From positions 496,001 to 560,000 of the forward strand of contig JAYWIR010000016.1 in NCBI GenBank assembly GCA_036172245.1: a DNA stretch of 64,000 nucleotides, read 5' to 3'. The DNA comes from Raillietiella orientalis (lineage: Eukaryota). The position numbers and the translations under genes were made by a program. Below are positions 901-57,880 of this stretch, piece by piece (positions within the stretch are counted from its first letter, which is position 1; every line of letters begins with the position of its first letter). Below the pieces are notes generated by a model, which was not told the origin of the DNA, did not search any database, and saw nothing but the letters and a program-made list of their open reading frames with translations.

Positions 901-1704
901 CGAAGGGTCGAGCACTAACAAAAGACTCCGTTCTTCACACCTGAATCTGTCTTTCGGCCCTGAGAAATCTGGCGTGTGCGCATTTCCATGGAGCATGGGA
1001 TTTGGATTCCAGCTGCCCAGTGTGACCGCCGGACTCACCAGAATCTTTTGGCATCACTTTCTCTCTTCTGTTTCTGATACCTCCATCAGGCTGAGGCTCA
1101 AGAGCTTGCCGAATTTCCTGCTCCTTGTTGGCAGCCGAGTATGTATCAGGAAAAATCGAGACCCGCAAGTCTTACAGCAATGCAACGAAGAAGCGCATCG
1201 AAAACACTTCAGGGTTGTTTGGTGACCAACCCTTGGAGGTCGGTTTGCTTCATCCTTGGATTGCAGTCGGGATAGACGGAGAATTTCCCAGAGATTCCGA
1301 GAGCCGGTTCCGTGTGTTGCATCACGAACGGATATTTGAAATCCAAAAACACTCCGTCACCTAGGCAACGGCACCGCTGATTCGCCTTTGCCACCATCGT
1401 TTTCCATAATGCTGATGGAGTTTTATTCAAACGAAGCTGCTTCCAGTTACCGTATTCTTCCGTCTGACCAAAAGATATCATACGATCTGTGTACACCGAG
1501 CATGCGGAGAACACTTTTACCGATTGTGCACTCCCTGGATAAGACTGCACTCGTGAGCACGTAGAAATGGCAAAAGTATGGCCAGAGATACCATCAGAAA
1601 TGAGTTACCAGAAAGGTCACCACACGAATGCATTGGCAAGTGGGCAACGTGACATGATGGAAACCGTTTTTGCGTTCTTCCGCTTTCTCTGCTTTTCCTC
1701 CACC

Positions 1705-1867
1705 TCTTTTTTTTGTTTTTCGGATTTTCTTTTTTTTTTGGTTTGCCAAGTGCTGAAGAACCGTTCATCACCTTCGGAGGAAGAGGAGGGAGGGAGGAGG
1801 GGTTCACGAAGCTCTTTTAATAACATCCATTCCACTTGAAGGTGCGTGGAACTCTTCAAGTTATAGG
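1705..1867 (-). repeat. Family B 3' terminus with A-rich tail
   Basis: Minus-strand aacttgaagagttccacgcaccttcaagtgg...aaagagcttcgtg...ggttcttcagcact matches 43317-43420 and 57728-57820, then an A-rich tail (T-runs at 1707-1739). Confidence 0.8.
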
Positions 1868-1871
1868 TTTA

Positions 1872-2050
1872 TCACCCGCCGGAACATTTATTATAAAAAA
1901 TAAAATAAACACACGTCTGTAGGGCCATCGGCCCTACATCGTCCGAAAATGTTCGGAACCTACCGAGTAACTGGCACGCAGGCCGGCTGGGTTCGCATCG
2001 GCAGCGGAGGGGAAGGGGGCAAACAAAAATAAAAATAAAACAAAACAAAA
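1872..2050 (+). repeat. Family A module (hairpin plus A-rich linker), copy 1
   Basis: ctggcacgcaggcc.gc.gggt.cgc.tcggcagc and ggaaggg...aaacaaa are shared with 10800-11000 (-); weaker match to 3400-3600. Perfect hairpin at 1918-1938. Confidence 0.75.
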
Positions 2051-2059
2051 CTCTGGGGG

Positions 2060-2660
2060 CACGGGAAGGGATCGCTGTCCTCTGGAGGATGCTGGCAAGT
2101 TCCATCCGAGTATGCTCCAGGTGGGATCATCTTGCTGCCGTCCTCATGAAGCGCAGGACGAAGCGGATTGCGTCCCTATTGCGCCATCCTCCTCTCGAGT
2201 AGTTCCAGGCCTCTGGCAGAATCTCGCGGGCAAAGAGCAGCAAAGAGCTGCTGGGGATGCAGCAGGCGAAAGGGCATCGCGCACGAAGAGGCGCTTTATC
2301 ACGTCCTTGAGATTGTCCATCGGTGCCACAAGGGCCGTTGCCTAACGCCACCATAGGGGCCGGAGGGCAACACAAGCTACGGGCAGGTGCGGAAGGATTT
2401 CCTTTCCCCGCATTTGCAACAGTTGGGGTTCACAGCCCACCGGGTCCGGTGAGACCGGAGGGCGTTGCACAGGAGACCCCAGCGCAACAGCAGAAGTGCC
2501 GACTCTTACCACCTCATGGAGAGGGTCCGGTTGTTCTACAGCGCTAAGGACCACTCGAGGTCCTGTGGGATTTCCAGCAGCTCACCCCAGCCCAATAGCT
2601 CTTTCGATGGGACTCTGGGGGTCGCAGCGTCCGTGAGTTGGCCCGTGGTCCAACCACCTA
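2060..2660 (+). mobile_element. R2-like thumb/CCHC/RLE remnant
   Basis: GKG..QVP, LMKRR..ASLLR, RGQRAAKSCWGC...EALYHVLE-CP, RHH, VRPEGVA, GLWGS. DNA match to 10560-10790 (-). Confidence 0.6.
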
Positions 2661-3090
2661 ATTCCTTCGCTCTTCCACCAATCTCACATCGGACCTCCCT
2701 TCTGGTCGGCTGTCACTGCCCAGATGCTCCCTGAGGGAGAGCAGTGCCGCTGCCAGGGAGGCCCTTTCTGCCCAAGCACGAGAGGCGGGCTGCACGATGA
2801 CGTCCTGCAGCGAGCGGTTGTTGTAGAAGGAGTGCAGCAGTCGCTGCCGCATCTCCGGGATCACTTCGCCCTTCTGCGTCCATGTGAGAACGGTTTCCTG
2901 CAACCAAGCGATACTGTTCGTCGGCCGGCAGGAGATCCAAGTGTTGGTCATGGTCAGCTTGGCCACCCGCCGGAGTCCCAGTTCGCAGCTTGACACGTTG
3001 CGTCTGTGCTGCCGCGTCAGGAACGGAGGCAGTTCCACGTAGCCGGTGGCTCGCTTGAGCAGGTGTCGTGCGGGAATAGGGGTTAGCCAA
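2658..3090 (-). CDS. Unidentified coding fragment with strong G/C third-position codon bias
   Basis: Open frame ...RHLLKRATGYVELPPFLTRQ...WLQETVLTWTQKGEVIPEMRQRLLHSFYNNRSLQDVIVQ; codons mostly end in G/C (ctg, aag, gcc, acc, tac). No family recognised. Confidence 0.35.
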
Positions 3091-3099
3091 GGAGGAATC

Positions 3100-3290
3100 G
3101 GCCTATGAATCCAGGAAGACTCCAGAGAAAGGAGCCTGTTCTTTTCACGTTTGGGAAGAACCCTAAAGGGAGCCCTCGCCCTGGTTGTCTTCGAAGGGAT
3201 CCCCGAAGAAATCTCGTCCTTATTCTCTCCGAAGGGGTGTTCCGTAGGAAAGGGAGGGACTCCTAAATTTCTTCTTCGGAGAGAACCGGC
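3100..3290 (-). repeat. Family B middle segment
   Basis: cctatgaatccaggaag (3102-3118) and cacgtttggga...ctcgccctggt.gtct.cgaaggga match 10123-10240. Confidence 0.85.
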
Positions 3291-3344
3291 ATCCGTTCCA
3301 ACCAGCTCCGCACTGAAAGTCTACAGGCCAGCTTGCGTCATCCT

Positions 3345-3600
3345 GCACACGGGACTCGAAACCCAGGACGCATTCACTTCTCGGCACCGATCCTTATTTT
3401 CGCCCGGTCATTCCGGAACGTTTGTTGTAAAAAAGTCATATAAAATATAAAAATGCCCTTCTTCGTAGTGGCTGCACATCACCACTGCGAAGGGAAATTC
3501 CGCCGCGGAGGCGCTGCTTCACGTGGGCAGCTCACCGCTGAGGTCCGCACAGGAGGATTGGGGAAGGGGTAAACAAAAACAAAAAAACACACGCACAAAA
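3345..3600 (+). repeat. Family A module, copy 3, preceded by part of the H head (gggactcgaaaccc)
   Basis: ggtcattccggaacgtttgttgtaaaaaa, a hairpin at 3462-3491 and ggggaaggggtaaacaaaaac are collinear with copies 1 and 2. Confidence 0.6.
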
Positions 3601-3619
3601 GTTGAGTCTTAAAAAATGT

Positions 3620-3995
3620 GAGGGTAAAGGGATCGAGGATTTCTTCCTGGCGTCCTCAGCACCCTCCGGAGGACGTTGGCAACTTGCTCCTCTTGCTGGA
3701 GAGATGCGGCCTTCCTCACGAAGGTGCAGACGATTGGGACGACCTCATCACTCGAGTGGCCTTTCGGCGCAGCTTCTCGCCGCCACGATCCCACGAAGGC
3801 CGCACGGAGCTGCGAGGGAAGCTGCAAGAGACATCGAGTCGCGCGCGAAGAGGCACAGAAAAAAAACCCTTTTCCGTTGCCCATCGGGAGTGGGGGGGTC
3901 GCAACGGAGCGTTTCCAGTTACTCGGGAGGGCAGCACAATCCAGCAACAGGTGAGGGAAAGTCTCCCGTTTCCCACACCTGGCACAGTCTGAGGG
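3620..3995 (+). mobile_element. RLE-element C-terminal remnant related to 2060-2660
   Basis: Shared gggatcg...cctc.ggagga.g.tggcaa start and ggga.t.gggggtcgca.cg end; RRCRRLG knuckle-like peptide. Confidence 0.45.
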
Positions 3996-4059
3996 CTACG
4001 TCCCCTCTTGTCCAACGGTGGACCCGTGCGTTGCATGGGATCGCCCAGCGCAACAACTG

Positions 4060-4145
4060 GGCGTCGATCCTTTGCAGGAATTCGAACCCACAACGCTAAA
4101 TACCACGCGCGGAGACCGCGGCCACATGGCCACCAACGCGGGCAT
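4060..4145 (-). mobile_element. tRNA-derived SINE-like head (H), copy 1
   Basis: Minus strand has A-box-like TGGCCATGTGG (4122-4132) and B-box GGTTCGAATTCC (4077-4088). gcggtctccgcgcgtggta is identical to 42702-42720. No intact cloverleaf. Confidence 0.75.
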
Positions 4146-4249
4146 CTTGGCATTTGGCAGTTTGCTACGGGCGGTCGTTCCTTGCCGATGCGGTGCTGAT
4201 TCAGCCTAGAAGCGTGCGTGCATGCCAGGCAGGGAAACGCTTCCCAGCC

Positions 4250-5080
4250 TCTTCTCCAAGATGGTAGCTCGCGATTCCCTCTTAAGATATGAAGAAGATG
4301 CTCAACGGATTCTTTCGAAACAGGACGAAGGGGTTTCGCAGTTCATGCAAGCATCAAAGCAGCTCTCACAAGCGAGAATGCTTCTCGTCTTCAAAAGACT
4401 CGCTGCCTGCATGGAACAACAGAAGAATTTGTGTGGATACCGTGAGAGGAGCGCAAATGACCCCCTCTAAAACTACTTTCTTTGCATCATCATGGTCCAG
4501 AGAACAGCCAGAATTCCGCTCTTGAATCTCCTTCTGATCCTGCGAAGAGTTTGGCACACCTTTCATCAAAAAGAGAGGACAGGAGGGAGCTGCTTCAAGA
4601 AACCCGCAGCGCGGCCACAAAGCAACAAGAGTTTCCTCTCGGCGGCTCGTGCCCAGCGCTTCGATGGAATCTTGAAGCTACGTGGCAAGGCGGAAGGTGC
4701 CAGTCCCTTTACGCTGCCGACTCGCTGCGCCATCGTGGATCCTGAAAAATTAACCAGGCCAGGAACGGTGACTACGGATGCAGAGTTGGCTCTTAGCTAA
4801 GAGGAACCTCGAAAAACCACGGCCTGCTGCATACAGCACTACTCAGCAGCATTGTTCTGGAACACACCTCCTCACGATCATGCAACGGATTAAGGTTATG
4901 AGCACGAGCATCTCCTCAGTCATTAAGCCGGTGAAGATTCGCCGGCTTAATGACTTGTCGGGAGCAGCAACTCATCCCTCATCTTCTGCAGCTTATCGTA
5001 GGTCTTCGCTTGCGAAAACGCTGGCTAAATTCAGTATTCCCGTCGACAACTCTCCAATAAAGGAAATTCCACAGAACACG
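4250..5080 (+). mobile_element. Very degenerate non-LTR RT remnant
   Basis: PLLNLLLILRRV, RFDG, CAIVDPEK, RLNDLSGAA, GLRLRKRW in RT motif order. Confidence 0.4.
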
Positions 5081-7469
5081 TAATGCGGACGTCACACCTG
5101 ATCGCTACAAGAACCGAGTGCACACTCCTCCTCTCCCTCATCATGTGAAACGATCCTCCCACATCCTGACTCCCCTCACATCCATGAATTACGGATCTCC
5201 TGTACCCGAAAAACATCGACTATTTAAACACAGCATGAATCAACAAACGATGGTGAACTAAGACCCCTGTCCTTAACCCCAATTCCCACAAGCGTGTTCC
5301 CAACCGACTCCATGGCGAATGAGCAATCACCTCACGTTTCATATCTCACGTTAATAGTGGACCATTTCCGGTTAGTAGTGGGCTTATTTCCAGTGTGCAC
5401 AGTGTTCGTTTCCCGAAGCTCCGCGCTGTCTAACGTGCATGCGCCCTGCCTTTACAAGCGCACTGCGCTTGCGCACACTCAGTGCACCCTCGTATCGGAC
5501 TGATGGAGTCGCGCGCACGGAAAGCGTGTTTTCTCTTCGAAGCAAAGTTCTTCCCTCCAGTGGAACTGATGCCCTGCTTCAAGAGGGCAGATCTATTTCC
5601 TCGAACTACGTATCTTTGTCCTCGAGCACCGCTGGCTGTTCCCTCTTGCTTCTGCAAGCTTTCCGTGTGCGGAACGGAAGAGGTCTGCCAAGCGAGGAAG
5701 ACCCGAGAGTCTAATGATGCTGCACGCTGAGTAGAGAAATCTGCGAGCTTTTTCCAGCCTCTCGCAAAAGGAAGCGAAGAGACTGCATCCGTGAAAATGA
5801 CCAATCCTTCCCTCCCTCCCAGAATCGCCCCGAATCCAGGCAATCAATCACCTTCATGTGAAGGGCTTCTTCGCATTGGTCTGAAAGGGTGAGCCACTCT
5901 TGTCTCCTGAGATAAACTGGCGGCCGCGGGAATTAACTGACCTTCTTGTCATCATCCTGAGGCCTCTGGATACCCGACTTCTTTCCAAGTTGCGGCTCCC
6001 TAATCCCGTATAAGGGAAAAGCGAAGGAATCGTCGCACTGAGGTTTCGAATCGAGAGAATAGAAAGATCGACTAACTGACCGTGAACAGCTTCATCATTG
6101 CCATCGGGATTGAGTGAAGCCTTCTTGATCTCCTCCTTGCGCCGAGAAACCAAGGAAACGGAGGTTGTTCAGAGGACGGAAAAGGGAAACCTTTTCTTCC
6201 ATTTCCTCGGCGTCCAAAGATCCGAAGAAGCTCTGTACAAGGAGGTCCATCAAGTCTGCTCAGAGAGCAACGGCTGAATAACAGAGAAACATGCATGACC
6301 AACACGAGTGAGTGGTTTCTCGTGCTCTGAGGTGGGCAAAAGCGGAGGAAGGGAATGGGCTTTTGAAAGGCAGCAGCCCATCAAAAGGGCGACCCGACAC
6401 TTCTTAGGGCTGCTGAAAGTAGGGCACTTCTTCGAGGTTGAGAGGAAAAGATTTGTCTCCATGACAGCTGATGAGAACCTTGAGGAATTCATCCTGCCGT
6501 GAGAAACCCTTTGCTTGCACCAGCAGGCTTGGGAGGGTACGATGACGTCACGATCTGCTCCAGGCACATGATCACAGCTCAAAGCTGCACCCAGATGAGA
6601 TGCGGATGATCTGCAAGCGAGGAGCTGCAAGAAAGGACCTAGACTCCCACTCCGGACTCTGGTCTCGAGTGGGGTATTTGCTTTTCCTTCTCCATAAAGT
6701 AGTTCTATGAGCTCTCAACAGATAGGTGGCTCTTCAGCTGATGAGAACAGATTTTTGTTTCAGGAAAAAGTTCAAGTACGGGATGCAGATGCCCGTCACC
6801 TAGAGTGTTTTCAGTCCCGTGCGCCGCCCGACATGCTCGTGGTGCTTGGAGACTCCTGACTCGGATCCCATGCAGCAGGACACATTCCGTGGGTCGCATT
6901 CGGCAGACCTGTCGAGGAACTCGGGGCTCCCCAGCATTCAGTGGTTTTTTTTCTCGTCTTTTCCATCGGGGGAGAATCAGGAGAAGCGTGGCAAAGAAAG
7001 GAGGCCGAATTCGGGAAACGGCGCCTTCAGCAGAGGAGTCCTGCGAAAACCTCGGTGTCCGGGGAGCGCCCAGAGTGCCATTGTCGGGAAGGACGCCCAA
7101 CCGTGGCACTCCAGCGCTCTTCCCCTTCTGTCTTCCCCGAAACCCGGTCCTCCCAGTCCCGTGGGAGACTAGGAATCACCTTCGGTCGAAAGACACAGGT
7201 TCTCAGAGGAGCCCGAGCTTGCGCGAGCGCCACGAGATCTCAAAGAGCGACAAAATGAAAAGGGAATAGGGGACTGCCTGACATACAGACAGGAAACATG
7301 AGGCGGAAGATGGTGATGTGCGCCAGCATCCAGCATAGGCGGGAAACAAGGTGGGACATCTTGAGTCGCCAGCAAGAATGAGTGGCTGTCCATGAGTTTC
7401 TGATTAGATGACCAGGTCACATATGAATACCCGACAGCCGACGCGCGCATGAGAAAGAAAACCGGGAAG

Positions 7470-7980
7470 ATGGGAACAATCGAATGGGTTCAATATTCAG
7501 CAGATGGATTCAGCAGTCGGACGACGATCAAGGGGGAGCGAAGCAAGCTCGCGACCCAGGTCAAGAACGCTGCCCTGAAACTCTGGGACGTGGCAGTCGC
7601 CAATGAGACCATCCAGAGAGCAGATTCGAAGCTAATGCCGGGTCGAGTGCTACAGGGCGAAGGAAAGTCGTTTGTCCCTTACGAGCAGGGGTCAGGGGCG
7701 TCGGAAGTAGGGGGGTACATATCGAGTTTTTCAGTTCTCCTCCACTACCGTAAGAGCAGTCATCGTAGGATTATCGTAGGATTTGGAGGGATTCAGGAGA
7801 CGATGAAGCGTGGAAGACTTGAACATTCTCATGAGGCAGAAGGAACACGTCGGAATGGGAAGGGACACTTCATTCCTCGGATGCGTAGTGAACACATAGG
7901 GTTGGTGAGCATCCGTTATGGAAAGAACTTCGAAGGTCAGAGGAAGAGTTGAAAAGGAGAAGATGCTAGAATTTCTTCCT
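7470..7980 (+). mobile_element. R2-like C-terminal remnant (thumb, knuckle, RLE)
   Basis: IEWVQY, NAALKLW, CRVEC..KES (other frame), HRRII, GHFIPRM, LVSIRYG (cf. DVTVRYE). Confidence 0.5.
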
Positions 7981-8099
7981 TCTACGTTTTGCCACCCTTG
8001 TTCTAGCATCCTTTTACGCTCCAAGTTTTCAGTATGGCCGGGACCCGTGCTGGTGACGCATTCTGGGTCACCAGGATGAACGGCTGCCTGAAAGCTTCT

Positions 8100-8660
8100 C
8101 ACACGATGCTCAGGTGGCGATAACTAAGGAGACCCACCACGAACCCTCATGTGTACCAAATTTCCATAGGAAGCTCCAAAACTATCCGGCGACCCAAGAG
8201 TGTCCTTTCGCACGGAGGGCAAACACGGCGGCGATGTAGAAGCGTGGTGTCGCCAAGGAGAAGAGTTTAGAAGCGCGGGATGGGTTCCGAAAGCAAAAGG
8301 AGCAACACATCCCACGGAGCGAAACGATCTGGGTCCGTGATTCCCGGGCTACTGTCCTCGAGCCGTTCCCGTCCGCGGGATGCCACCCGCCCACGGCCGA
8401 GGAAGGCTTGCGCCACAGGTTGCAGAGACGCACGGAGACGGCGGCGCCAATCCTGGAATCCATTCGGCGACTCTTGGGGGTTCACCAGGATGGCGAGTCC
8501 CTACTCCCCGTCTCCATTCTTCCGACCGAAGCCGGCGCCTTCTAGGGGAACGCAATCAAAACGTTTTGCCTTGGACCGCCCCGTCCGTCCATCACGGCAG
8601 GAAACACTGAGCAGACGAAGGCACTCTTGCCGGGACGCGCGAAACCCAATCCCTTTTCTC
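8100..8660 (-). mobile_element. NeSL/Utopia-like C-terminal remnant
   Basis: RFDCVPLEGA (cf. ARLNCVPLNGA), WRRRLRA, PDRFAPWDV, FALRAKG followed by IV.GA. Confidence 0.6.
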
Positions 8661-9980
8661 ACGACGTGGCGCCTCGTTACTCCAGCGCCAAACATCTGTG
8701 CCCGCGGGAACGTCGGGAGAATCCGACTACAGGAAATTCGCGTTCATCTTGCTGCCAGATGGGTGTATCCAGCTAAGGGAATGTTTATCCAGAGTTGTTG
8801 GAGGGGAAGGGGGGAGAGGGAGGATCCGACCCCGCTCCCTTGGCCTGACCTTTCGAACGCGGGAGTCGGTGCGCGTTCGGGCGATCGCGCGTCGTTCCGC
8901 GATGGCACGGAGTTCCCTCCTCCCTCCCTCCCGCGAGCACGACCGACGACGACGACCCTTCCCGAGGAACGCGCGCGCCGAGCTCTCGAAGGAATGCGCG
9001 CCCCTCGCGGTTTCCTGCTCTCCTGGACTCTGCCGATCGGGCTCGCGTTTTCTCACGAGGTGGGGCATCCTCCTGCAATTAGCCTTCTTTCCAAGGGGAG
9101 AGGGCTCCTGCTCCCGAGTGTGGGAAGAGAGCATTCCCGCATGCCTTTTTTTTTTTTTTTTCGACGGATCGGTAGTCGCATCCTTCCCTTCCGCCGGCCG
9201 CGGGAGTTGAGTTCTCATCCAGGGACACGAGGCGTTCCGTTCCCTGATGAAAAGTGGTCACGTTGACTCTCCCGTCCGGAGAGAACTGCGGACGAGCGGC
9301 ACCGCGAAACAGGACCCTCGGGGGCGGGGGTTCGTAGGCGCGCTCTCTTGGGAGAGCTCGGAAACGTGACATCACGGAGGTTTCGGAAGAGCGGCGGCTC
9401 CCATCCGATGCGGGGAGCCTGGTCACGTGCGGCCAAAAAGGGATGTCAAGAAGGCGAATACCGATGGAGCGCGAGCACCTCCGCACGCCTCCGAAGATTC
9501 GAAGCGACCTTGCCGCGAGGAATCCGGCCCAGCTTCCTCTTTGGGTGTGTAAGACGAGTAGATCTGGCAAACCTGCGCCGTCATTCGACCCGTAGAGATA
9601 GCAGCAGCGCCTCGATCTCCCCGAGCTGAAGACCACGGCAAAAAAAAAAAAAACCTTCCAAAGAAGAGCGGCAATCGGAGATTCGGCAGGAAGACGTCAC
9701 GTGTTCAAGGTCTTCAGGAATGAGTAGGCAAATCCCGCAACGGTTTCGTGGCAGGCAGGCAGCAAGATTGTGGACCAACAGCCTCTTTCCGGCAGACGGT
9801 TCTGAAGACGGCGTGCCAATAGCCTACGCGTCGGCTACTGGAATGCCCGGCAAATCAGTCGACCTCGGCGCCCTCGGCGCCACGCGGTTCGCTCTGGTTT
9901 CAAGCCGTGCCGGGTACTTAGCGATGTTCAAGGTCACAGGAACTGAACATCGGCCTGGGGCACTTGCTGACGCGACTCTG

Positions 9981-11190
9981 CTTTCTTTTTTCTCGGTTCG
10001 CCAAATGCTAGAGAATCACCCGTCTCCGTAGGGTGGGCTCATGAAGCGCTTTCACACCTCCCACGCCATCCAAAGGTTCAAATAACCCTTCAAGAGTTAG
10101 GAGTGAACCCGAAAGAACCCACCCTATGAATCCAGGAAGGCTCTGGAGGAAGCAGTCCATTCCTCTCACGTTTGGGAGGGAACCTCGAAGAGAACTCTCG
10201 CCCTGGTCGTCTCCGAAGGGAATCTCTTCCTTGTTCTCTGCAGAGGGATTCCCTGGGGGGGACGCTGCTCCCCATTTCTTCTCCCATGGGAACCCGGAAA
10301 GGATCCTCTCCTTCCTTGCTCAAGAACCACGAAAGGGACACTTCCCAATTTCTCTGAAGGGCGCTCCCCGAAGAGAGCAGCACGCTTCTTGATACTCTGG
10401 AGAGGCAACCCCTGAGGGAGCTCCATGGTACGCGATGGAGAGTCTCCCCTCGAGGAGAGAACGGCTCCTTTTTCACAACCGGTGCGGAATTCCGAAGGGA
10501 ACCGGCTCCTTGATTCCTGGAAGGACCCTAGAGGATCAGGGAAGCTGATTGGAAGAATCTGGCTAGTCGTCGGCCTCATTCCCAGCAGCACTTTGCTGCC
10601 TACGCGGTAGGATCGTGGCCGCATGAAGCAACGCGAAAGGAGGCCACAACGACAGGGACGTCACCTACTTTGCCGTCCTCTTCATGAGGACAGCGTCAAG
10701 ATCTTGGAACCACGAAACAGGAACTTGCCGGCATCCTTACAAGGATACAGCGGACGCCCTCCAACACACAGTGATCCCTTCCCGAACCCCTCCCCCTCCC
10801 TTCATCTTTTTTGACTGCAGTTTTTTTTGGTTTGTTTGTCTTCCCTTCCCTCGTGCTGCCGAGGCGCACCCTGCTGGCCTGCGTGCCAGATCCTGGCAGG
10901 TTCCTTTTCGTATTCATAAGTAACGTGGCAGGATCAAAAGTCCTGCCACAGACATGTAGGTTTATAAATAAAACGCCCCAGCGTGACCAGGTGTCATACC
11001 AATGCGCACCTTTATCCTGCAGGAAAACCAGCGTCGTTCTGAGAGGAGAGGGGGGGGGATTCGAATCCCACGGCGCACCCCCCGTTCTCGGCGTCAATCC
11101 TTTCCTCCCCGGGTGGGATTCGAACCCGTGACTCCAGGTGCCAGGAGCGTTCGAGCTCAGGCACGCAGCCTCCGACGCTGGCCGCGTAGC
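9981..11190 (-). mobile_element. Composite candidate SINE: tRNA-like head H + module A + R2-like thumb fragment + family B 3' end + A tail
   Basis: Head 11026-11190 matches 42690-42815. 10560-11000 matches 1872-2260. 9981-10525 matches 42880-43430 and 57325-57830. A-rich end at 9982-9991. Confidence 0.6.
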
Positions 11191-11229
11191 TGTGGTCGAA
11201 CGCGTCTCGAACACCAGCTGGGACCCGAG

Positions 11230-11650
11230 CACTCGGGCTTAAGTGTTTTCGATGAAGTGGCTGCAGACCTCAGATCCCGAAATGCGTGAACCAGTGACCG
11301 CGACGGCCGGAGGCTTCCTCGCGTTCACCGTCAGCGCTTCCCTGGAAACAAAGAAACTCCGCCAGCAAAGCTCACGGGAATGCCAACAGGTCGACGAAGC
11401 GGCCGCAGCAGAGGACTGGAATCGGAGGCTCGACAAACGCGAACCACGGGCTGCCTTGACCTTTTCGTGCGTTTCCCGGATGACCACGCACCCAACTCAA
11501 ACAAACCCTATAAACTTCCCGTCTCCGGGAGACGAATGTTTTGATTTGTCTGTGCGGGTGGGATGGGATTTTCGAGGGCGGGGACATCCGGACCTTCCAT
11601 ACAACGCCTTGCCGCACGTTTTCGACTGCGGGTTTGCTTATGTGAGAAAA
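11230..11650 (-). mobile_element. R2-like CCHC/RLE remnant
   Basis: VWKVRM, PET, IRETHEKV, WFAFVEPPIP..GRFVDLLA (cf. W..EP.I...PDL). Confidence 0.45.
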
Positions 11651-12499
11651 TAAACACGCGCTCCGCACGCAAGTGAAAGAACGGGAGCATGCACTGGAGA
11701 GAGAGGGGAGGGAAGGGGGAGGGAAGGAGGAGCTCATGTGAAAGGACTTCCGCTGGCACTGGCACCACAAAGATGAGGACGGTTTTACCTGGCAAACACG
11801 TGCCTTTTTCTCCAGCCGCTATCCGAAAGTGAGAACAGCGCTAGGGGCGAGCGCGTGTTGGGAGGTCTCCGCGAGATTTCGGAGGCAGCCTCCTCGCACC
11901 ATTGTCTTCCAGAGGCACAAGAGCTGGATGAGGGAAGATCGGCCACTGCTTATTTTCGCTCCCGTTTCTATTTTACGCCTCCCTCCTCCCCCACGAGGAT
12001 GCGCGCTTGCTGGAGTCACCGAGTGGAAAGCTCGCACCGTGCCCCGTGGATCTGCCCCGGGGCACATCCTCCGTCCCGATCCCCTCTTCCGATGCGAAGG
12101 TTCACGACAGTTCCCTCTCGGAGGGAGCTCGGATTCACCGTCGCACTGCCGGAAAGTCCCTGTCGAGCTCCGCGAAACAGCTGGGAAGGTTGCACTGCTC
12201 CCCCCTCCTAGCGGCCGGCCGTGGAACGAACACCTCGGATGAAGACGGCGAAGCGAGGCACCTCCGGTAATCGAAGGTCCTAGGGAGCCACTCGACTCCC
12301 TCCCCCTCGATCCCAGCGACCTGTTCTGAACATTCCTTCCTTCCCGAATCCCAAAGATAAGGCGCCGCGAGCCTCCTTTCTTTTCTCTTTCGCAGCGCCC
12401 GCCTTTCGCACTTGTTGAGGCAAATGTTTCCAGGGAAGGTAATTAATCAAGGTGTAGTTCCTTCTCAAGAGAACACGGAAGGAAATTATCTCACCGTAC

Positions 12500-14620
12500 T
12501 GGAACCAGAGGGATCACAGTGAAGATTGACGTGTTTCTGTGCGAGCTGCAGTCCCCTAGATTTATTGCGTCCTCCTGTTGCTGTCGTGGTAAATCGCGAA
12601 ATGTTAATCTCCTTTTTGTAAGCGCGCGCGGAACGCCAGAAAGGATCCTTTTGACTCTTGGAATCGCTGACTTCCTCACTCCATCCTTCACGGCATCCCT
12701 GCCCAGCCAACTCGCTTCACTGCAGCCAGCGCCATCCCCGTGATTAACGGCTCGTGTCTTTCGAGCTGACAGCTCCTTGGCGACGCGGTGCAGCGACCAG
12801 CGGAGAAAAACGTTTCTCTCTGCATTGAGTCGTTGGGGGAGAGCCCTCGATTGGTCCAAGTTCCTCCGGTGGATGCTCTTGGAACTGCCCGGAATGCTGG
12901 AAACCCCGATTCTTCTCTCTCTGGTGTGTGTTTTTCCGTCGCCGCCGACCAACCGCCGATCACTTCCCGATCTCGCGGAGGGAGGTAGGGAAGGAGAGGG
13001 GAACAGCTCACCCGTGGCACGCGAGCGAGCCAAGTGTCGGCGGCGACTTCAGGCTCCTTCCCAGGCGTCTGTCGGTTGGCGCCAATGCAAGTGGAGCGAT
13101 GACCGTGGTCGCGGTGTGCGTGTGAGAGAGACAAGGGGCGGGGGGGAGGATCGCAGCTTAACCGGTGGACCCGAACATCGCCCACTCCAGAGGGGACGCG
13201 CTCTGAGGAGGGCAGATCACTGGGGACGCTCTCCAGTCTGCCATTCGCTCCCTCAAGGAGACGCGACCGCTTTCCATTGAGCGGGAAGCCGCGTCCCGCA
13301 AGGTACACGAGCAGGGTTCGGAGACGACCTGGAAGGAGCGCAGGAATGCGATGAGATGATGTTTCCAGGCTCTGCCGGATTGTTCTGCCCCGCGTGCACA
13401 CGTCTGATCCTCCGCGCTTGAAATATGATGATTGATCGCTGGGCAAGCCGATCCTCTGCAGCCATCCCTCGCACACTGGTGTGCCTTCAGATTTCCGCCT
13501 TCCAGCAGGAAAGGCAAAGAAGTGAAAGATGAAAGGCCTCCACAGGGCTGACACATTCATCCGAGGGGTCTCTCTGGACCCTGGCGAGTGGTTTCCTGCA
13601 GGCGTCCTTGACTGCATCATCGATGACTAGAGAGACCCTGCAAAGGGAACATCTGAGATTCGGTGGAGGCGAAGAAAGTCTCGTGCTTTCGAACTGGGTA
13701 TCCCGGAAACGGAATCCCTTTCAGGATTTCTTTCTCCTCTCTCCCTGGAACAGTCGATCTTTGGAGATGCTCTTCACTAATGCTGCGCCTCTTCTAGACG
13801 ATTCCTGCTGTTCCAGGGAGAAAAAGGATGGTCAAATAGTCATTTGGTAGTTGAGCAGCGTCTTTGTGAAGCGAAAATCTGGAGCCAGATTTAGTGCCTG
13901 ACCCTTGGGGCCACACCCTCGAGCCGCCACGTGAACTGTAAATTAACAGCGAAAACTCTGCTGCTGTTCAACACAGCAGCTGCCTGAAAGACACATAGAA
14001 CACCTTCTGCCAATGTCTCCAAGCAGTCACAGAGATGTTTTTCGTCTTTGTCGTGTGGGACCGGATCGGCTCTTGAAGCTGCGAGCACAACGTGACGCTG
14101 GAGGAGGCAGAGTTTGTACCGCATGCTGCCGTTTCCTTTTTACATGGGGAGGGAAGGGGGCGAATAAGTGTTTATTTTCCCAGGGGATCGTGAAGGCGGT
14201 CGAGTGGGTTCCCCTGGCGTCGGCTTCTCCCGCGGGAGACGCTGGCGCCGGACGCCGGGGTGCGCGGCGTCTTCTCCTCCACCTCTTACTGTGACAGCGG
14301 CGCCGACGAGCGCTTGGAAGCCGCCGACCGGTTTCTGCTTCAGGGCCAGATTAGCCCTCAGCTGATCTAGCCCTGATCTGCATCTTCCTTTAGGCATCCT
14401 GGAGATTCCTTTCGAATGTGCCTTGCAACGGGGGCCAAAGAGTGTGGAGAGGGCATGCCCTCAGGGCACAATGCTTACGAAGCCGGACCGTCCATCCAGG
14501 AAATCCTGCCTTCACGAGATCGTGGAATCGATTTCTGTTTCTGCTTTCTGCTGGTGGATCACCTTCCTTTCGTCTTCTCCTGGTTTTCGGGCATCTCATC
14601 TTGCAATTATGCATCCTCTG
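12500..14620 (-). mobile_element. Interrupted R2-like element (pre-RT region to RLE)
   Basis: RRRRK..QDFLDG (~14500), LHKDAAQLPNDYLTI (~13850), LRTLLVYLAGRGFPLNGKRS (cf. GL.LNPKKC), RHEPLITGMALAAVKRVGW (~12730). Two GC-rich interruptions. Confidence 0.6.
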
Positions 14621-16499
14621 CGATGATCAAAACAGACGCCCAGTGGGCGCGACGGTACTCCTCGTTGAGCCGCTCACTTCGTTGGCTGATCTTTCGAGTT
14701 TGCAGTTGTCCGGCCACGAGTCGCTCCCGGCAGCTCTCAGGCTGCTGTCTTGTCGATCAAACTGCTCAGCGGATGATTCTCTGCAACTCCAGGGTGACCT
14801 TGGGGAAGCCTCCGCGGCTGGAAATCGCTTTCGATCCCCTTTTCTTCCTAGAGTGGAAGAACTTTCTTTCACTGAGCCTGTTTGTCCCCGAGCAAAGAGA
14901 GGAGACGGAAAGAAGAACGATGCAGAATCAGATGAGCGGATGCTCACTCCGAGGCAGTATTGGGACTCTTTTAGAAACGAAACTGATTTCAGCCAGGCAT
15001 CTACTGCCTGTAACCCTGAGCATTCGGGGCCCAGCTCTACCTACAGGCACGAATGAGGAGGAAACCCATCAAAGTGGGGATCACGATTTCCTTAAAACGC
15101 AATGATGTGCCATGCTGACGTAACCGCACAGTCCCTAGGTTCAGCATATGTAGATGCTTCTGGAAACTCTTCCTGCCGCTGGACCATACACGAAGACCGC
15201 CCCCAGACATGATCTCGTAGAACCTTGGTGGTGATCACATCGTGAGGATTGCTTGGCTTGCGTCCTCCGGGTACCGAGCATGCGTTGTACCTGCTCCTGA
15301 ACACCGTTCTTCGCAGACTCCAAGTCCGTTGCAGAGCTGAACGGCGACGGACGCTGACGGAGGGGTGGTTCCGGGGCAGACTTCGAGACGAGGGAGGTTC
15401 GGGATCTTCCCATCTTCCTTGCAGCAGGCGTCGCAGGTCTTGTCTCGCGAATGCTACATCCTGGCGAAAAACCAGAGAGACTGCTTGTTGCCAGGCACTG
15501 TCGTTGTCTACTCCGAACTGTCCGGCCAATTCAGGAAGAATGCCGTGCACGTTTCCTCGAGCACATGAAACTGAAGTGCCGCGTTCACGCAGCGTCTTCC
15601 GTGTGCAACGGAAGCACCGACTGGCGAAGGCCCAGCCCGACTTGTCAACCCGCTGCATCCCGCATGCGCAAATATGTCCTCCTGGAATGCGGATGGCGCG
15701 GAGTGGGTAAAAAATTACTTGCGCTCCGCCTTGCTCCGAGCCGCCGCGCATCTCCTACGAAGAAGCATCCGAAAACGAGACTCGAGAGGTGAAAAGGAAT
15801 GGCATTTTTGAAAAACCGCTCCCTTTGCTGCCATGAATCACTAATCCCGCCTAATTGCCGGTCACCGTTTTCCATACCCTTTGCATCTCTTTGTGACTAC
15901 GAGAGATGAAAGAAATGCTCCGGGGCATTGGCATTTAAGGAACAAGGAGCAAGGGAAACATGAAGGTAGAGAACACCCCTGCGTTGAACTACCTTTACTA
16001 GGGACACAAATGCCGGATTCTCAAGCCGATACAGTAGATGATGAATGGAAAGGGAGGAGGGAGTGTTCTGATTCTTCGACCGTAAAAAAAAGCGTGAGGA
16101 ATGAATCTTCTCCTGAATGGACTTGCGCGGTCACGTTCCGCCGCCGACATTCAGGATCGTTGGGGGAGTGCACAGCTTTCAAAAATGGGAACACATCCAC
16201 CGAGGTGGGATGGCTGAAAGGTTTTCAAGTCGGCGCCGAGGCCGCTCCGGAGGATGCGATTTATTTAGCAGCGACCACTCGTCCAGACCCCAGCAGTCAA
16301 CGACCCCCATGCGCCGGCGTCTTCTCGCCCACGATTTGAGGTCCCGGGTTTTTCAGAGCCTCTTTCCGGGCAAGCAGCCCTTTTCTACAAACACCACCCT
16401 CGGCTCTCCAAACTTCGACACCTCTGGCTTGCCTTCCCTAGTGGTTGTTCCCACCACTACTATCCCATCGTTTTTGACGTTAACATCGCTGTCAGATCG

Positions 16500-24750: not shown

Positions 24751-27700
24751 GGGGTATCCGAAATACTAGGAGAAATAGGTAATGACGGACGATGGAACTT
24801 GAGGGCCAGGTTTAGGTCAAATGCTCCTCATCTTTCCTATTCCTGATGCATTGGTTTTTTTTCGTGTTGTGTCCTTGTTTATCCCATCTTCATCCTTTCA
24901 AAGGTTTCCCTCCTGAACCGCTCAGAGAGTTCCCGAACTCTCACAGATGGCCTCGCTTTCTCGAGGGTGAGCAAAGAGACGAGAAGTAACGAGGCAATGA
25001 CGGGTTGGCGCTTCTAGAGGATTCCTGTGGTTTGATGGCGGTACGAACGGAAAAATTTTGAGGATGAACTTTTTTCCCAATTAAATCTTGCTGTCATCAG
25101 GAATCACTGTTTGTTTGTTTTTTTGACTTTTTTCTACCCCCGGGTGTTTCGATAGGGAGACACCGCCTTGTATCCAGCTAAAGGCACTGTGCACTCCGGT
25201 GGGTGTGACGTCAAGTGTGGTACTCCGAGGCTGCATGACAGGATTTGGCCGCAGCAGAGTTCGCTGCGAGAACTCGGCAGCCTCCTCGGCGAATCATCTG
25301 AACAGCGATTGCCCCCTATTTTGCACGAGCACTCCTTGGATCTTCTTTCCTGGAGGTCACGAAACTCATCGGACGCCCGTCCGTGTTCCACGAGACCGGC
25401 TGTGAAACGAACACTCATTGGACTGTATCTTGTAGAAGATCAGCGGCGGCTCGCCAGATTTCTGCACGCTCGCGGACCTGTGCTCCACAGAGATGCGAGG
25501 AAAGAACTGACAAGATGATTAATAAAATCGTTTCCAAGTGACAGCTCTTTGGGCAATCACTGCGACTTCGCTGTCATCAAGCAAACCTGCGTGCAGCACC
25601 TTTCGTCTTCAAGGTTAATAAATGATAGTGACTCTCTTCTCCTCCAGCGAGGAGGCGGGAGTTTAATTTTGGATCGGATGCTTCCCATCCATGAACACAG
25701 GCAGCAACGGTGTTATCAAGGAAGGACCAACTACCTAGGAAGAGAGGGCGTTGCGACAAAAAGCGAAATCGCTAAAAAGAGAGAGTGCGCGTGTGGCCTA
25801 ACTGAAGGGAAACGACGAAGGGAAGCTGGAAGGGGTATCACTGAGGGCAAGCCGTGGAAAATTGTTCTCTAGGCAAAAGACGGCGGTAAAAGAAAAAAAA
25901 AAGTCGACACCTTACCGCCTTTCTTTTCGAAGACGTCCGTTTGCATCAAACACAAAAGCCGGTGCAAGTGGATAGCATCTTAATCGATCATGGAGGTCTC
26001 AGCTTAAGACTCCATGCCGAAGTGGACTTAACGACGGTTTGCAATGAATGGTTTTGCCTTTCAGGAAAAATCCATTTTTAATGGCAAAACAAACAGAAGT
26101 AGGAATGGGGACCTTCGAGTTAGCGGGGTATAAAAGTTGAAATGGCTCGTTCCTTCCTTTGGTGACGAAAGTGTGTTACTTTGAAGAGGAATTTGTCAAC
26201 GCGCGCAATTTGTAGGGGTGTGCTTCAAAGGAACGGAAAGATTGAGCCACGCATCCAGTGAGGGATTTTCGTGGATCGCGATGGAAATGAGCTCGTTGTC
26301 GATTGCCGATGCAAACCACGGGAACTCGAAACGTTAGCATAAGAGGAAAACCATCCGAGGAAGCTTTTTTCCTGGGGAAGTGGCCGTGCGATGCGAGCGC
26401 TCGAGGGGCCGAACGAACGAGCGGCAAATTTCAGCGATGACGCGAGCCGTGCAGCGCTGTGGGCGAGAATGCGCCAGAGGCATCAGTTCGTGCCATCTCC
26501 GGAGAGAGCAAACTCGAGACCTGCCAGGCAACCAGGAGCCGGCACTCTCCATGAAAATCAGAACTAGGTCACCGAGGATGCGCTCGCGTGCTCACCATCT
26601 TCGGAAGCGTCCCGTCTGCGGCCGAGGGGGCACTTCCGGGACACCGCCGATCCGCACCGAACGATTATAATGCGAGGTGGCACGTTGGCGCAAGTTGCGA
26701 CCGATATTCACGAGAGAGCCATTGCGGGACACTTGAAAGACGTGCTCGCGGTGCACGGCCGTCCAGAAATGCACGAAGCAGGGTGGAACCGTTCATGGAG
26801 TCCGGCTGTGAAGAGTTGGAGCTGTCGTACCATGGAGCCGGTGGACATCCCCCTCGGGGCTCGCTTCTCCGGAGCGCGCGTCAACTCAGCGGAGAGGCAG
26901 TTGAACACAACGCTCTCCCATAAAGTCGCCATCCGTTCTCGCTGTATTTAAAGGAAGGCGAAAGAATTTCCATGCCATCGTAGGTGGCTTCAGATGAGTC
27001 AGAAGCCACCTCTTTTTCCTCGTCGGTCTTCTCTCCCTGTCCCTTAGGGAGCGGCGGTCAAACCAAAAGGTTCGAACGTGCTGTCCGGTGCGAGTCGAGG
27101 GAGACAGACCCGAAAGGATAAGGTGGCAGCTTCCTTCCTTGTTTCCTCAAATCTGAAGCGTGCCGCGCTACGCTTGTGGTCGCGGATGAGCGCCTCTCTG
27201 GAACACTCTGCTCATCGGTTTGTGTGCACCAAACGTGTCGACACCAGTCTGATTCTTGCTGACGGATTACGGTCATTTCGATTCCGCCCCAAGCTCAGGG
27301 CTGCTCAAAATACTCAAGACCGCGCAGTTCCACTGGCAAAGGGTGATGCTGCAGACCTCGGATGTCATCTCCGCCGATTGCGTTTGCTCTTCCGGTTAGT
27401 GAAGGATGCGGTGCTCGCGTTCCGGGCTGATTCCCCCTAACGCAGCCGAGTTCCCGAGTGATGCGGGGCTTTCTTATTGGCTTCCCGCGAGTCAGCTCCT
27501 ATTTCTCCGTCCTCACCAAATCACGGAATGCTGGTGGGGGGAAGAGGAGTTACTCCAGAAGCAGTCTGTTTACAAACGGGAGTTCTGTTTATTAGCATTA
27601 TGGGCTCGGCAGATCTCTCTCACGGTGCTGATAGTGATTACGTCCGGAGGACTCGGAAAGCACTTAGGAAAGTTCCACCACTGAGGTGTGGATTTTTAGG

Positions 27701-42676: not shown

Positions 42677-43435
42677 GGCCCGTGTTGACGGCCTTGTGGC
42701 TGCGGTCTCCGCGCGTGGTACCAAACGTTGCGGGTTCGAATTCCCACGTGGAGGATCGACGGCGAGAAATAGGTGCGTCGTGGGTTTCGAGTCACCCCGC
42801 AGAATGACGCTGGTTGTGCAACATTCAGAATGGAAGCCGGAAACCGGATGTCCCCGTCGACTGGGCGGGATTGGAAGTCCTTCCAGGAATCAAGGAGCAC
42901 CAGTTCACCAGTTCCCTTCGCGGTTCCCCTCCAGTTGTGAAAATGGAGAGGTCTCCCCCCCCTCCCCTCGGAGATGGACTCTCCATCGCTGGAGCCAGGA
43001 TCTGGTTGGTGATTTTCTCGGGCGGTTGCCTCTCCAAAGTTTCAAGAAGCGCGCTGCTCCCTCCGGCGAGCGCCTTTCAGAGAAATTGGGAAGCGTCCCT
43101 TCGGGGTTCTCTTCCGAGGAGCAAACAAGGAGCAGATCCTTTTCGGGGGGTGCCTCCGGAGAAGAAATCCCAGGAGCGGATCCTTTCCGGGTTCCCTTCG
43201 GAGAAGAAATGGGGAACTCCTCCTCCGGGGGATCTGATCGGAGCCCAAGAGGGACGAATTCCCTCCTCCGGAGCCCTTCCTGGATTCATAGGGTGGTCCC
43301 CTTTCGGGATGCCTTCAACTTGAAGAGTTACACGCACCCTCAGGTGGCGTGGGCAGCGTCAAAGAACTTAGTGACTTCCCACCCCACCCTCTCTAAAGAG
43401 ACGGACAGTTCTTCAGCACTCTTTAAGAACCAAAG
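42677..43435 (+). mobile_element. tRNA-like head H joined to family B 3' end (candidate SINE copy)
   Basis: A-box-like cggccttgtgg and B-box ggttcgaattcc (42733-42744); head ends at cagaatgacgctggtt (42800-42815). B runs from ~42835 to gttcttcagcactc..aagaac. Confidence 0.7.
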
Positions 43436-43469
43436 ATGATTGGACGAGACTCTTGAGGCTTGCGAGGCC

Positions 43470-52041: not shown

Positions 52042-52393
52042 TCAAGGGCTGTTCAGGGGATTCCATGTTCCAAGTGCTCCAACAATTATAGCTTTAACTT
52101 CGGCTTGAATTCCTTTTCCTCGTAAATGCAGGGTTATTCCCCGATATTTATTTTCCTTATCCTTACTTGCAGAGCCAAATGCTTCCTCCGTATATTCAAA
52201 AGGACAGGAGACATGAACAATTAGTGTACCATTTCTGCAGTACAAGGTCAGGTTTCAGGCTGGAGTTGCAACCTGGAACAGCTTGGTTTGCCGATATTAC
52301 TTTCCATCCTGCTGTATCTTGAGCTGCTGCTTTCGTCCTTAAAGCAGTGCCATCATATCTGGCTGTGTAGAGACGATAATGCCTGCAGTTCCC
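52042..52393 (-). mobile_element. Well-preserved Utopia/NeSL-type restriction-like endonuclease fragment
   Basis: NCRHYRLYTARYD..LRTKAAA..GWKVISANQAVPGCNSSLKPDLVLQK / (frameshift) LIVHVSCPFEYTEEAFGSASKDKENKY..LRGKG...IIVGALGTWNPLN. A canonical PD..(D/E)xK RLE layout, with the second catalytic D read as H. Confidence 0.92.
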
Positions 52394-54872: not shown

Positions 54873-55279
54873 CAGCTTCCACTCATTTCTTCCTCCTCGT
54901 GAATGTCCCGCGCCCGCAGCAGCGAGGTCGGGCCGCCCCGCGAGTGGGAAGGACACTGGGTCCGAGGCTCAACCAAAGGTTGGAACCGGGGCGAAAGAAG
55001 ATTTCATCGTCTTCTGCTTCCTGTCTCCCCGGATGGATGCGAGGGAGGGAAGCATCACGACTCCAGAGTCAGAATTTAGGAGCCTTTTCTAGGGGAGGAC
55101 GCGGCTGTGGCGTCTTAGGGTGAAGCATCCCATCTGATCTGTGCTGAGTAGCTCAGGTCAGATGGTCAGGTCAGCCAACCCGGGACCAATCAGTCTGCCC
55201 CCTCTCCCCCTCCTCTTCTCGAGCAGAAGAACCTTTACCATTCTTTCTCCTCGAAGGAGAGGACTGTAGAGAGTGTGGG

Positions 55280-56560
55280 TGGGCGGGGGCGGGCTGCTCA
55301 GTCCCAGCCTCCTCCCCGCCACCTTCCCAGATATGTACGGAACACCACGGCGGCCAGCAGGTCTGGCGTAGAGAACTCTCGAGCAGGCTCCCGCGGACTC
55401 ATGGATGTCATCACTGACCCAAGACTGGGGAGCCACCTAGGAAACGGGACTGCACATGCAACTCGTCTTCCAGAGCGGCAGGAGACGCCCGGAGAACGAC
55501 CCAGCCGGAAGTTCATCGTGGTCACCGTGGCGCTAGCACCGAGACATCCACGCGTATCGACATTATCTGGAGGAGGACCGATGTAGGTCTCTGTATTGAG
55601 GGAGAGACCCCTGTTTTTCATGCAGCAGGCAACAGAGGTCATTCCGGCCGAGCGAGGCTTCTCGACAGGGAGGAGTGGGTTAGCTCAAAGATCGGAGATG
55701 GAACGTCCGAGACTCAAGAAAGGAGTGAGAGCGCTGGGTGCTGGAGAAAGGGGGAGGGGAGTGCAGCAACTGGTGCCTTGACTGCTGCGCCAGAGTAGGC
55801 GCGCCCAAGCTTGCTTTCCGGAGACTTCATGCGCCTCCGGCGTTGCGGCATTCCCTTTCTTAGTGGATGGGAACTTTCCTTGGGTTGGCGTAACTCTCCG
55901 TCTCTCCCTTCTCCCTCCCTTTTTTTCATCCCTTGATCGCCTTCGGAGATTCTTGGACTTGAACGCAGGCAGAGACACCCTCCACCACCTTCGGTTGCCA
56001 AGGAACTTCTTGAGCTCAGGATCCGAGCAGGACGAGTCAATTTTATGGTATTCTCCGATTCCTTGCTCCACCAAGAGGAGGAGGAACCTTCGCGAGCCAT
56101 CCAGGAGATCGTCCTTTGGTCATGTCCTGAGAGAGGCATTCCCAGAGCACAGAAACATTCCCCTGGAAACCGAGGAACACAAGCTCATCTTACCTCGAGG
56201 ACTGCAGCCCTAGGAGCCCTCGTGCGAAACCACGCGGCACCCGGAGACTCGATCCCTGCCTGTCGCAAGAGGGGACCCCTAGGCAGGAGTCCAACTTCCG
56301 GAGTGGAAGGCGTCAAGGCACGCTTTCTCTTGCCAGGACCGGGAGAGAGGGGGGAAGGCGAGGATTGCCACTCCTCTACCCTTGATCCTCCCTGCCCTCT
56401 CCACAGAGTCTTCCTCGTTGCTGCAGGCGAGGGAGGCATGGCCTTCAACGGCTAACGCGAACTTTCCGGAAGCACCACGTGGAGAAGGACTGACGAGCTC
56501 GATGGGGATGGAGATTGTATTTGCGCGCCGCGTCTGGAAGGCTCTTCTAGAAAAACAGAG
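55280..56560 (-). mobile_element. R2-like RT-thumb-RLE remnant
   Basis: RRAFQT, EGGGG, WARLLWRSSQG, L*AKPLLP, GRNDLCC..GSLPQ, WRGGGW. Confidence 0.55.
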
Positions 56561-56949
56561 TTGAGGGAGGAGTGAAGGCAGCTGGAGGAGCATCCTCCTC
56601 CTGTGGATCCGAAAGGTGTCGACCGGCTTTTCTTCGGGAAGTCGGAAGTCCGGAAGCTGCATGCGGGGACTGGAAGTAAGAAGTCCGCGAGAGGAATGGG
56701 AGGAGGCTTCCAGATAGAGACGCATTATCCCGAAACTTCCACATCGAGGTCGGAAATCTCCGCTAGCCCTCCCGGAGGAGAAGCTCCGGGCTGCCTCCGC
56801 TCTTGTCGAGAGAGCGCCAGACCTTCCCGTGTGTCAGCCGTGTGTGCCCTCAGCAGAGCTCGGAGATCGGAGGCCGGGCAGGCCAGCTGTCAGCCCTGGA
56901 AACCAGAGCGACTTGGGATACTCTGGGGAACGTAGCCGGGGGCCGGCGG

Positions 56950-57880
56950 GAGATCTGGTGACAGAATCTGCACAACGCGCGGTCCGCGCGAGAGCCGAGC
57001 CAAGTGGACAGCCGGAGCGCTCCCGATGACGTGCGGAACCAGTGTCTAATTGGCTCACAGGAGAAGTTGATTCCTTGATCTCTCCCTCTCTCGATCCGGG
57101 TAAAGAAGAGAGTTGCCAGCATCTTGCGAATCCCCATCCACGGACTGCCTACGAAGTCCAAGATCTCGCTGCCATCCGTGGGATCGGCATCAGAGGGGAG
57201 AAGTTTCTCTCCCAGCACGACGGAGGAAGATAGCTGGAGGATCTCGGGAATTCCCTTCTTTCGAAAACCGGCCGGATGCCCCTGTTGGCTGGCCTCCGGG
57301 GTTGGAAGTTGACCCTCCGGGGTTCTTCCAGGAATCAAGGAGTCCTTCCGAGTTTTACTCCAGTTGTAATAATGGAGCCATCCATGGAGTTGTTTGATAA
57401 CCTTTTCGGGGGTTGCCTCTCCATAGAGTCAAGAAGTGCGCTGCTCCCTTCGGGGAGCGCCATTCAGAGAAATCGGGAAGCGTCCTTCGGGGTTCTTTCC
57501 AGAGAAGGAAACGAGAAACAGTTCCTTTCCAGGGTGTCCCTCCGGGAAAGAAACCAAGAGCAGCCCCTCAGAAAGTCTCTCCGGAGAGAATAAGGAAGAG
57601 GTTTCCTTCGGGGTTTCCTTCGGAGACGACCAGGGCGGGGGTTCCCTCCCAAGAGTAAGAGAGGAACGAATTTTTTCCTCGAAACTTCCTGGATTCATAG
57701 GGTGGTCCCTACTGGGGCATCTCCTTTAAATTGAGGAGTTAACACACCCTCGGGTAGCGTGGGCAGCGTCAAAGAGCTACGTAGGCCCACCCTGAGGAGG
57801 AGGGTGGTTCTTCAGCGCTCCTTGAGAACAAAAAGAAAAAAAAAAGAAAACTCGAAATAAAAATAAAAATAAAAAAGGGA
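56950..57880 (+). mobile_element. R2-like 3' end: thumb remnant, family B, poly(A)-like tail
   Basis: W*QNLH, SNWLTG, ILRIPIHGLPTKSK, then B (57262-57830) and an A-rich tail at 57830-57876. Confidence 0.75.

Follow-up and report, generated by a model that had tools for sequence, protein, structure and literature searches.

A long and abundant tRNA-headed SINE family in Raillietiella orientalis whose 3' end shows no link to the RLE retrotransposons tested

Non-autonomous elements with internal repeats and target-site duplications (TSDs) include the R2 SIDEs, which serve here as a comparison system beside EhSINE1, and the EhLINE elements are of the RLE type. EhSINE1, as described in PMC2996970, is likewise non-autonomous, carries internal repeats of 26-30 nt, forms TSDs, has about 70 bp of its 3' end in common with its partner EhLINE1 and possesses no tRNA head. 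The tRNA SINEs of SINEBase are described with a tRNA head, a body of no known source, an A-tail, far more than 100 dispersed copies, variable internal repeats and subfamilies; the 175 SINE families given there span 75-662 nt, and the definition used is <700 bp with a working limit of <1 kb (PMC3531059). In the T+ SINEs such as B2 and Can, which PMC9599045 lists from placental mammals only, the poly(A) is immediately preceded by a variable T-run, the arrangement that termination by Pol III at this point and later addition of the A-tail would produce, and AATAAA lies upstream of this terminator. Mobilisation of SINEs by L1-type LINEs goes through the poly(A) and needs no homology of the tails, according to PMC9599045 and PMC3747384, the latter under the term relaxed recognition, and the same source (PMC3747384) describes stem-loops as common at the 3' ends of stringent SINE/LINE pairs.

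The element at 9981-11190 of the window (the whole stretch of 64,000 nucleotides analysed here, G000:C16:496001-560000) is a copy of an abundant, long tRNA-headed SINE, in which the head (H) and the body (B) are one repeat (Table 1). The family is a new, lineage-specific one and largely ordinary for the tRNA-SINE type. It shares with the tRNA SINEs of SINEBase the tRNA head, the body of no known source, the A-tail, the copy number, the variable internal repeats and the subfamilies (PMC3531059), and shows the testable features of such SINEs except shortness and a clear A box. Unlike the families described in that source, its complete copies measure 0.9-1.1 kb (about 0.9 kb in subfamily 1, 950-1096 nt in 12 copies of subfamily 2), above 700 bp and around the 1-kb working limit, and their head includes a further, incomplete tRNA-like unit. 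As in the T+ SINEs of PMC9599045, a terminator precedes the A-tail, with a variable T-run adjoining the poly(A); unlike those elements as described there, neither consensus has AATAAA, and a predicted hairpin takes its place. With EhSINE1 as presented in PMC2996970 the family has in common the non-autonomous nature, the internal repeats and the TSDs, and it differs by its tRNA head and by having no end in common with any RLE element tested.

Table 1. Positions of the SINE copies in the window and of the sequences lodged in or standing before them
Feature	Position	Strand	Evidence
SINE head: tRNA-Arg-like unit with B box and second, 5'-truncated tRNA-like unit	11026..11182	-	head profile 11181-11026, E 2e-20
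Linker between head and body, ending at antisense LINE hot spot (family ~154-171)	11000..11025	-	full profile at family 163 by 11003; insertion junctions
Nested 5'-truncated 3' fragment of L1/Tx1-like LINE-C, antisense to SINE	10556..10999	+	LINE-C 3' profile 10640-10994, E 5e-49; tblastx 10556-10982
SINE body B, family 217-787, ~30-nt repeats, ends at internal A-run, terminus absent	9981..10538	-	full profile E 3e-127
Unbroken SINE copy from head to internal A-run (family 2-788)	42678..43446	+	full profile E 1e-200 (copy helped build profile)
Head of uninterrupted copy	42678-42816	+	head profile
Third copy: first half of head (copy runs to 1654)	4057..4143	-	profile 4142-4057
Sense LINE-C fragment in head of third copy, ~12-bp head duplication on both sides	3400..4056	-	LINE-C profile 3723-3400; tblastx 3778-4075; insertion junctions
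Third copy: remaining head and internally deleted body	3078..3395	-	profile 3395-3289 and 3298-3078
Third copy: second half of head	3326-3395	-	profile match
Second sense LINE-C fragment in third copy, family ~664	1880..3084	-	tblastx 1887-3084; profile 2192-1877, E 1e-95
Third copy: 3' part, A-run and conserved stretch, stops just short of hairpin	1654..1879	-	profile 1883-1654, positions 649-852
Head-less SINE copy, positions 175-827	57262..57877	+	profile E 9e-137; no head upstream at maximum sensitivity
Single-copy stretch, earlier called R2-like; no RLE/RT match	56500..57261	+	DNA, protein, profile searches

The genome comprises 210 Mb in 491 contigs. As DNA queries, B gave 4836 and H 2411 first-look candidates, and for each of the two, 40 were scored and 30 fetched. 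The repeats named in an earlier, sequence-only reading of this DNA were recovered by self-comparison of the window, and its claim that H and B belong together was borne out genome-wide: both were found on one strand at 28/29 non-self loci picked with H and at 25/29 picked with B, so that chance nesting of two mostly unlinked repeats is not what the genome holds. Among the former 29 loci, the head ran directly into B at 22 and reached B after a gap at six, and a single one (L046) was without B inside the locus, where a long antisense LINE piece extends up to the locus end. Among the latter 29, a head stood close upstream at 22 and farther away, with an antisense LINE piece between, at three; four had no head. 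On large contigs, 20 segments of 10 kb, chosen by round coordinates, contained six heads (four leading into B, two into an antisense LINE piece) and one 3' piece cut by the edge, from which about 7,400 copies are extrapolated (95% range 3,000-15,000); the head-body-tail unit is dispersed in well over 100 copies. Reversed-sequence controls gave no match with the head and body-part profiles and one with the full profile.

The arrangement with H upstream of B in the same sense, earlier seen in two of the three heads of the window, holds for all three of them. The head at 4057-4143, which had been counted as unlinked, is part of a copy that runs from 4143 to 1654 and is split by two nested LINE pieces in sense orientation. 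The proposed length was about 0.75-1.2 kb and complete copies reach 0.9-1.1 kb; the 1.2 kb at 9981-11190 include about 440 nt of an antisense LINE fragment lodged at a site where it recurs in many copies. When 38 copies were aligned, they gave a core of about 850 nt with a mean identity of 0.81 to the majority sequence. The two subfamilies are told apart by shared diagnostic differences; subfamily 2, found via the search for the terminus, is the younger (pairwise identity 0.85, 0.78-0.96 over 12 copies). A short internal piece of the SINE body is also located at 26761-26875 (+).

The head is tRNA-related, as in tRNA-derived SINEs. It best resembles tRNA-Arg(CCT), with z 6.3 against block shuffles when 50 of the 62 listed tRNAs of the genome were compared, and tRNA-Arg(TCT) is the next-best match (z 5.1). 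The second unit behind it is 5'-truncated and more weakly similar to a tRNA, the likeness covering the 3' two thirds (best z 3.3). A B box with at most one mismatch was present in 30/37 heads, and an A box in 2/37 with at most one mismatch and in 19/37 with at most two, as compared to 18% of shuffles. The three heads with A and B boxes reported from the window do exist and each has a B box with at most one mismatch, while their A box is degenerate. No tRNA was called in the window by ARAGORN or Rfam, and ARAGORN recognised the consensus of subfamily 1 as tRNA-like at a lowered threshold only and did not call that of subfamily 2. The description as a tRNA-headed, SINE-like retroposon is supported by these results.

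The body contains internal repeats of about 30 nt in variable number. The A-rich run, which had been taken as the tail of B, is internal: complete copies extend about 110 nt beyond it, through about 55 conserved nucleotides and a predicted stem-loop to a T-run and poly(A). The true terminus is absent from every copy in the window. The search for it in the genome gave 62 candidates, of which 40 were scored and all 40 fetched; a T-run of at least two was found at 37/40 of these loci and of at least four at 25/40, and an A-tract at 38/40. Both subfamily consensus sequences are free of an internal T4 and of AATAAA; AATAAA occurs in 8/40 copies in the region examined upstream of the T-run, into which the degenerate A-run or the end of a LINE falls. 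The terminal stem-loop has a column identity of 84% over 29 copies, and the predicted hairpin folded better than shuffles in two of three copies (z -5.8, -2.0 and +1.3), with compensatory pairs at 0/8. One complete copy (L243:500-531) has about 20 extra T between the 5' duplication and the head.

Simple-repeat tails and TSDs, the marks of retroposition, were both found in the family. TSDs exceeded 95% of the null in 13/20 complete copies and 99% in 12, measured 9-15 bp and mostly began within the A-tract. In many older copies the sequence breaks off 10-50 nt short of the hairpin end or at the internal A-run, and the loci not picked for the hairpin show ragged ends (n = 52) that peak immediately before it. 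In this the family is like the tailless retropseudogenes and SINEs of PMC5322556, described there as breaking off in many copies at favoured internal positions short of the true end; the TSDs at our early ends, in comparison, were mostly undetected (3/23 copies ending near the hairpin start, 4/11 at the A-run, 0/8 at other ends), and this test is limited by the age of the early-ending copies (81% to consensus). Internal priming would fit the tailless copies, although TSDs mostly went undetected there. The 71 late ends comprised 21 with the hairpin, seven with LINE-C within 120 nt, seven with LINE-C later and 36 with neither, and it is rejected that all tailless ends are LINE-C insertions, because LINE-C lies downstream at 14/71, a minority. 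Priming of the tailless copies by LINE-C at a CATC motif was set aside as unsupported, with TSDs above the null in 0/13 and the motif upstream in 1/13 (5/23 in the other set).

LINE-C, the element nested in these SINE copies, is a high-copy LINE (2666 candidates), and judged from its RT we call it L1/Tx1-like, the best match of this RT in PDB being human L1 ORF2 (6e-9), with R2 at 6e-7. It lies antisense at family position ~154-171 in 15 copies, with inserts of about 200-1200 nt and a duplication of about 15 bp where both sides are visible; most of these insertions look independent because of the varied insert lengths and the duplications, and three inserts of about 680-710 nt with a common 5' end may be one event that was copied. 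In the sense orientation, the hot spots are at family ~552, 590 and 664 and at the hairpin start. Of the 29 non-self loci picked with LINE-C, six were flanked by the SINE, more than its share of 1.6% predicts (p 6e-6; 3e-3 at 5%), and most LINE-C copies are outside the SINE. Insertions at such fixed, orientation-specific sites, with varied 5' truncation, were seen in the window and at L004, L017, L038, L045, L050, L059, L184, L201, L229, L267 and L273. Repeated landing at few fixed, orientation-specific sites in another repeat is also described in PMC4494074 for Tx1-Mar in Mariner-N4_AMi and for Tx1 in Tx1D; as compared to these, the landing repeat here is a SINE and most copies of the LINE lie elsewhere. 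Behind its ends LINE-C mostly has ACCA- or ATCATC-type motifs, which were not seen at the TSD starts of the SINE, and LINE-C was rejected as the SINE partner, having no common 3' end with it and other target motifs.

The best explanation of these data, which we consider rather probable, is a high-copy tRNA-headed retroposon that Pol III likely transcribes and that a poly(A)-reading LINE of the L1/Tx1 type, rather than the R2 type, likely copies in trans. Pol III would start at the tRNA-like head, read through the body, whose consensus offers no T4, and stop at the T-run behind the hairpin; the SINE RNA would carry or gain poly(A), the LINE endonuclease would nick an A-rich site, and reverse transcription would be primed on the poly(A). 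The copy at 9981-11190 was later split by the antisense L1/Tx1-like fragment, and at 57262 only the body is left. RT families of the L1/Tx1 type abound in the genome, and the best 30 RT loci (of 150 listed, from 3358 candidates) belong to one endonuclease-bearing family of the L1/Tx1 type. This family (L142-L171, L255, L256, e.g. on G000:C71, C26 and C114) has long open frames and forms head-to-tail arrays about 5.5 kb apart, often in small contigs or near contig ends, and a decayed piece related to it is at 49146-49990 (-) of the window. Against this explanation, the SINE terminus matched none of six L1/Tx1-type 3' ends, including those of the tandem family and LINE-C, and in the two L1/Tx1 families considered the favoured target motifs seem to differ from those of the SINE. 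The weak A box, the hairpin with its uneven folding and absent compensatory pairs, and the early ends with mostly undetected TSDs count against it too.

The partner could also be of the stringent type, in which case the hairpin would come from the 3' UTR of an extinct or unsampled APE-type LINE (L2, CR1, RTE, I/R1 or another L1 lineage) and be recognised by its RT. The conservation of the terminal stem-loop speaks for this, as do the stem-loops reported for such pairs (PMC3747384), and the RT loci examined were 37 of the 150 listed (3358 candidates). We nevertheless hold it unlikely, as all 40 scored terminus matches (of the 62 candidates) stand behind the SINE or behind LINE-C lodged in the SINE, with SINE 3' sequence preceding 36 of them, a LINE-C end three, and other sequence with SINE body upstream one, and none is the own end of a LINE; the T-run between the hairpin and poly(A) would moreover suit a Pol III end better than a LINE mRNA.

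Even less probable, in our estimation, is that the copies are retrocopies of one or a few structured non-coding genes, or that a retroposon with a tRNA-like 5' end was transcribed by Pol II or from an upstream promoter. A length above the 75-662 nt of the SINEBase families (PMC3531059, as far as its collection reaches) and the weak A box would agree with it, but the thousands of copies in two subfamilies with diagnostic differences and the 5' start fixed at the tRNA-like head do not, and Rfam offered no source RNA, with nothing above E 0.48 on two complete copies and nothing near the gathering score for body or terminus.

That an RLE element (R2/NeSL/Utopia-type) was the source or the mobiliser of the 3' part of the SINE is very unlikely. 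The sequence-only reading had placed B at 56950-57880 directly after R2-like coding sequence and derived from this both an R2-group 3' end and mobilisation by RLE machinery; the DNA before 57262 is single-copy and matched no RLE protein in any test, while the positive controls worked. A DNA search of the genome with 56700-57270 returned the self match only. Pfam gave nothing in six frames of 53500-57300, PDB gave no retroelement in the three sense frames of 56500-57300, the R2 chains not being matched, and a protein search of the own genome with the stretch gave two weak matches (E 0.05 and 0.5) with no retroelement at either. Over 55800-57300, a profile of 129 RLE proteins reached at best -6 bits among 630 tile-frames and tblastn of 150 RLE proteins at best E 0.34, with a protein set that is NeSL/Utopia-biased and could miss a short frameshifted R2-clade remnant there. 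The same profile gave 55 bits and 13 bits for true fragments in the window (52048-52384 and 40668-40784, respectively), and one RLE protein of the genome matches the PDB R2 chains at 1e-57. RLE proteins of the genome recovered the window fragments 52048-52384 (-) and 40674-40878 (+) and nothing at 56950-57270; both, the second with a full extent of 40668-40878, are genuine decayed RLE-domain fragments, and the SINE follows neither. A possible RT-thumb motif read by eye before 57262 was backed by no test. B at 57262 is a head-less SINE and not a LINE 3' UTR, because its first nucleotide corresponds to about family position 175, where the SINE body begins and near which the LINE often splits the SINE.

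RLE elements are abundant in this genome, with five NeSL/Utopia-type loci and 155 RLE-domain matches from 1174 candidates. Their 3' UTRs, where tested, are short and A/T-rich, and some elements are dispersed and end in short A-tracts, which would favour a role in the spread of the SINE. Poly(A) and TSDs alone are compatible with an RLE partner too. The tails were compared in the 800 nt behind 40 RLE ORF ends (chosen from 150 listed, 31-72% identity) and in five further stretches, and the full SINE profile had no match in these 45, the best E of any SINE profile being 0.29 on the same strand and 0.05 antisense. Several of the tested RLE 3' ends abut sequence that we take to be U2 snRNA or 28S rRNA, whereas the SINE is dispersed: those of L287, L290, L291, L292 and L304 (Utopia-type) are directly followed by presumed U2 snRNA-like sequence, and that of L260 (G000:C83:276300-280000), with an RLE open frame of 817 aa, abuts what is presumably antisense 28S rRNA near the R2 site. 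An antisense LINE-C piece lies within the U2-like part of L290. Short TSD-forming elements with RLE partners do exist, as the pair EhLINE1/EhSINE1 with its common end shows in the account of PMC2996970. RLE coding directly upstream was found at 0/40 terminus loci, and the only clear RLE signal among them is L236 (G000:C32:463814-466874), 5' of the head of the copy, where a complete young SINE lies, in the same orientation, inside the terminal part of an RLE ORF. This copy has its own 11-bp TSD and is therefore nested, an example of how insertion can place a SINE behind RLE coding sequence. The RLE link is not supported, and the idea that RLE machinery feeds a tRNA SINE, the one claim that would have been surprising, has lost its sole sequence evidence. 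The remaining variant, a tRNA-headed Pol III SINE moved in trans by a dispersed NeSL/Utopia-type RLE element via hairpin and poly(A) and with no common tail sequence, has a very small chance, and the literature searched by title and abstract opening held no example of a tRNA SINE with an RLE partner.

The SINE family found here is useful for repeat annotation, and is unusual mainly in its length of about 1 kb and in its end of hairpin, T-run and poly(A) without AATAAA. An L1/Tx1-like LINE uses the family as a landing site, and this behaviour has a crocodilian precedent. Its end may, if this can be shown, represent a route of termination followed by adenylation outside the mammalian T+ SINEs, which we put forward tentatively.
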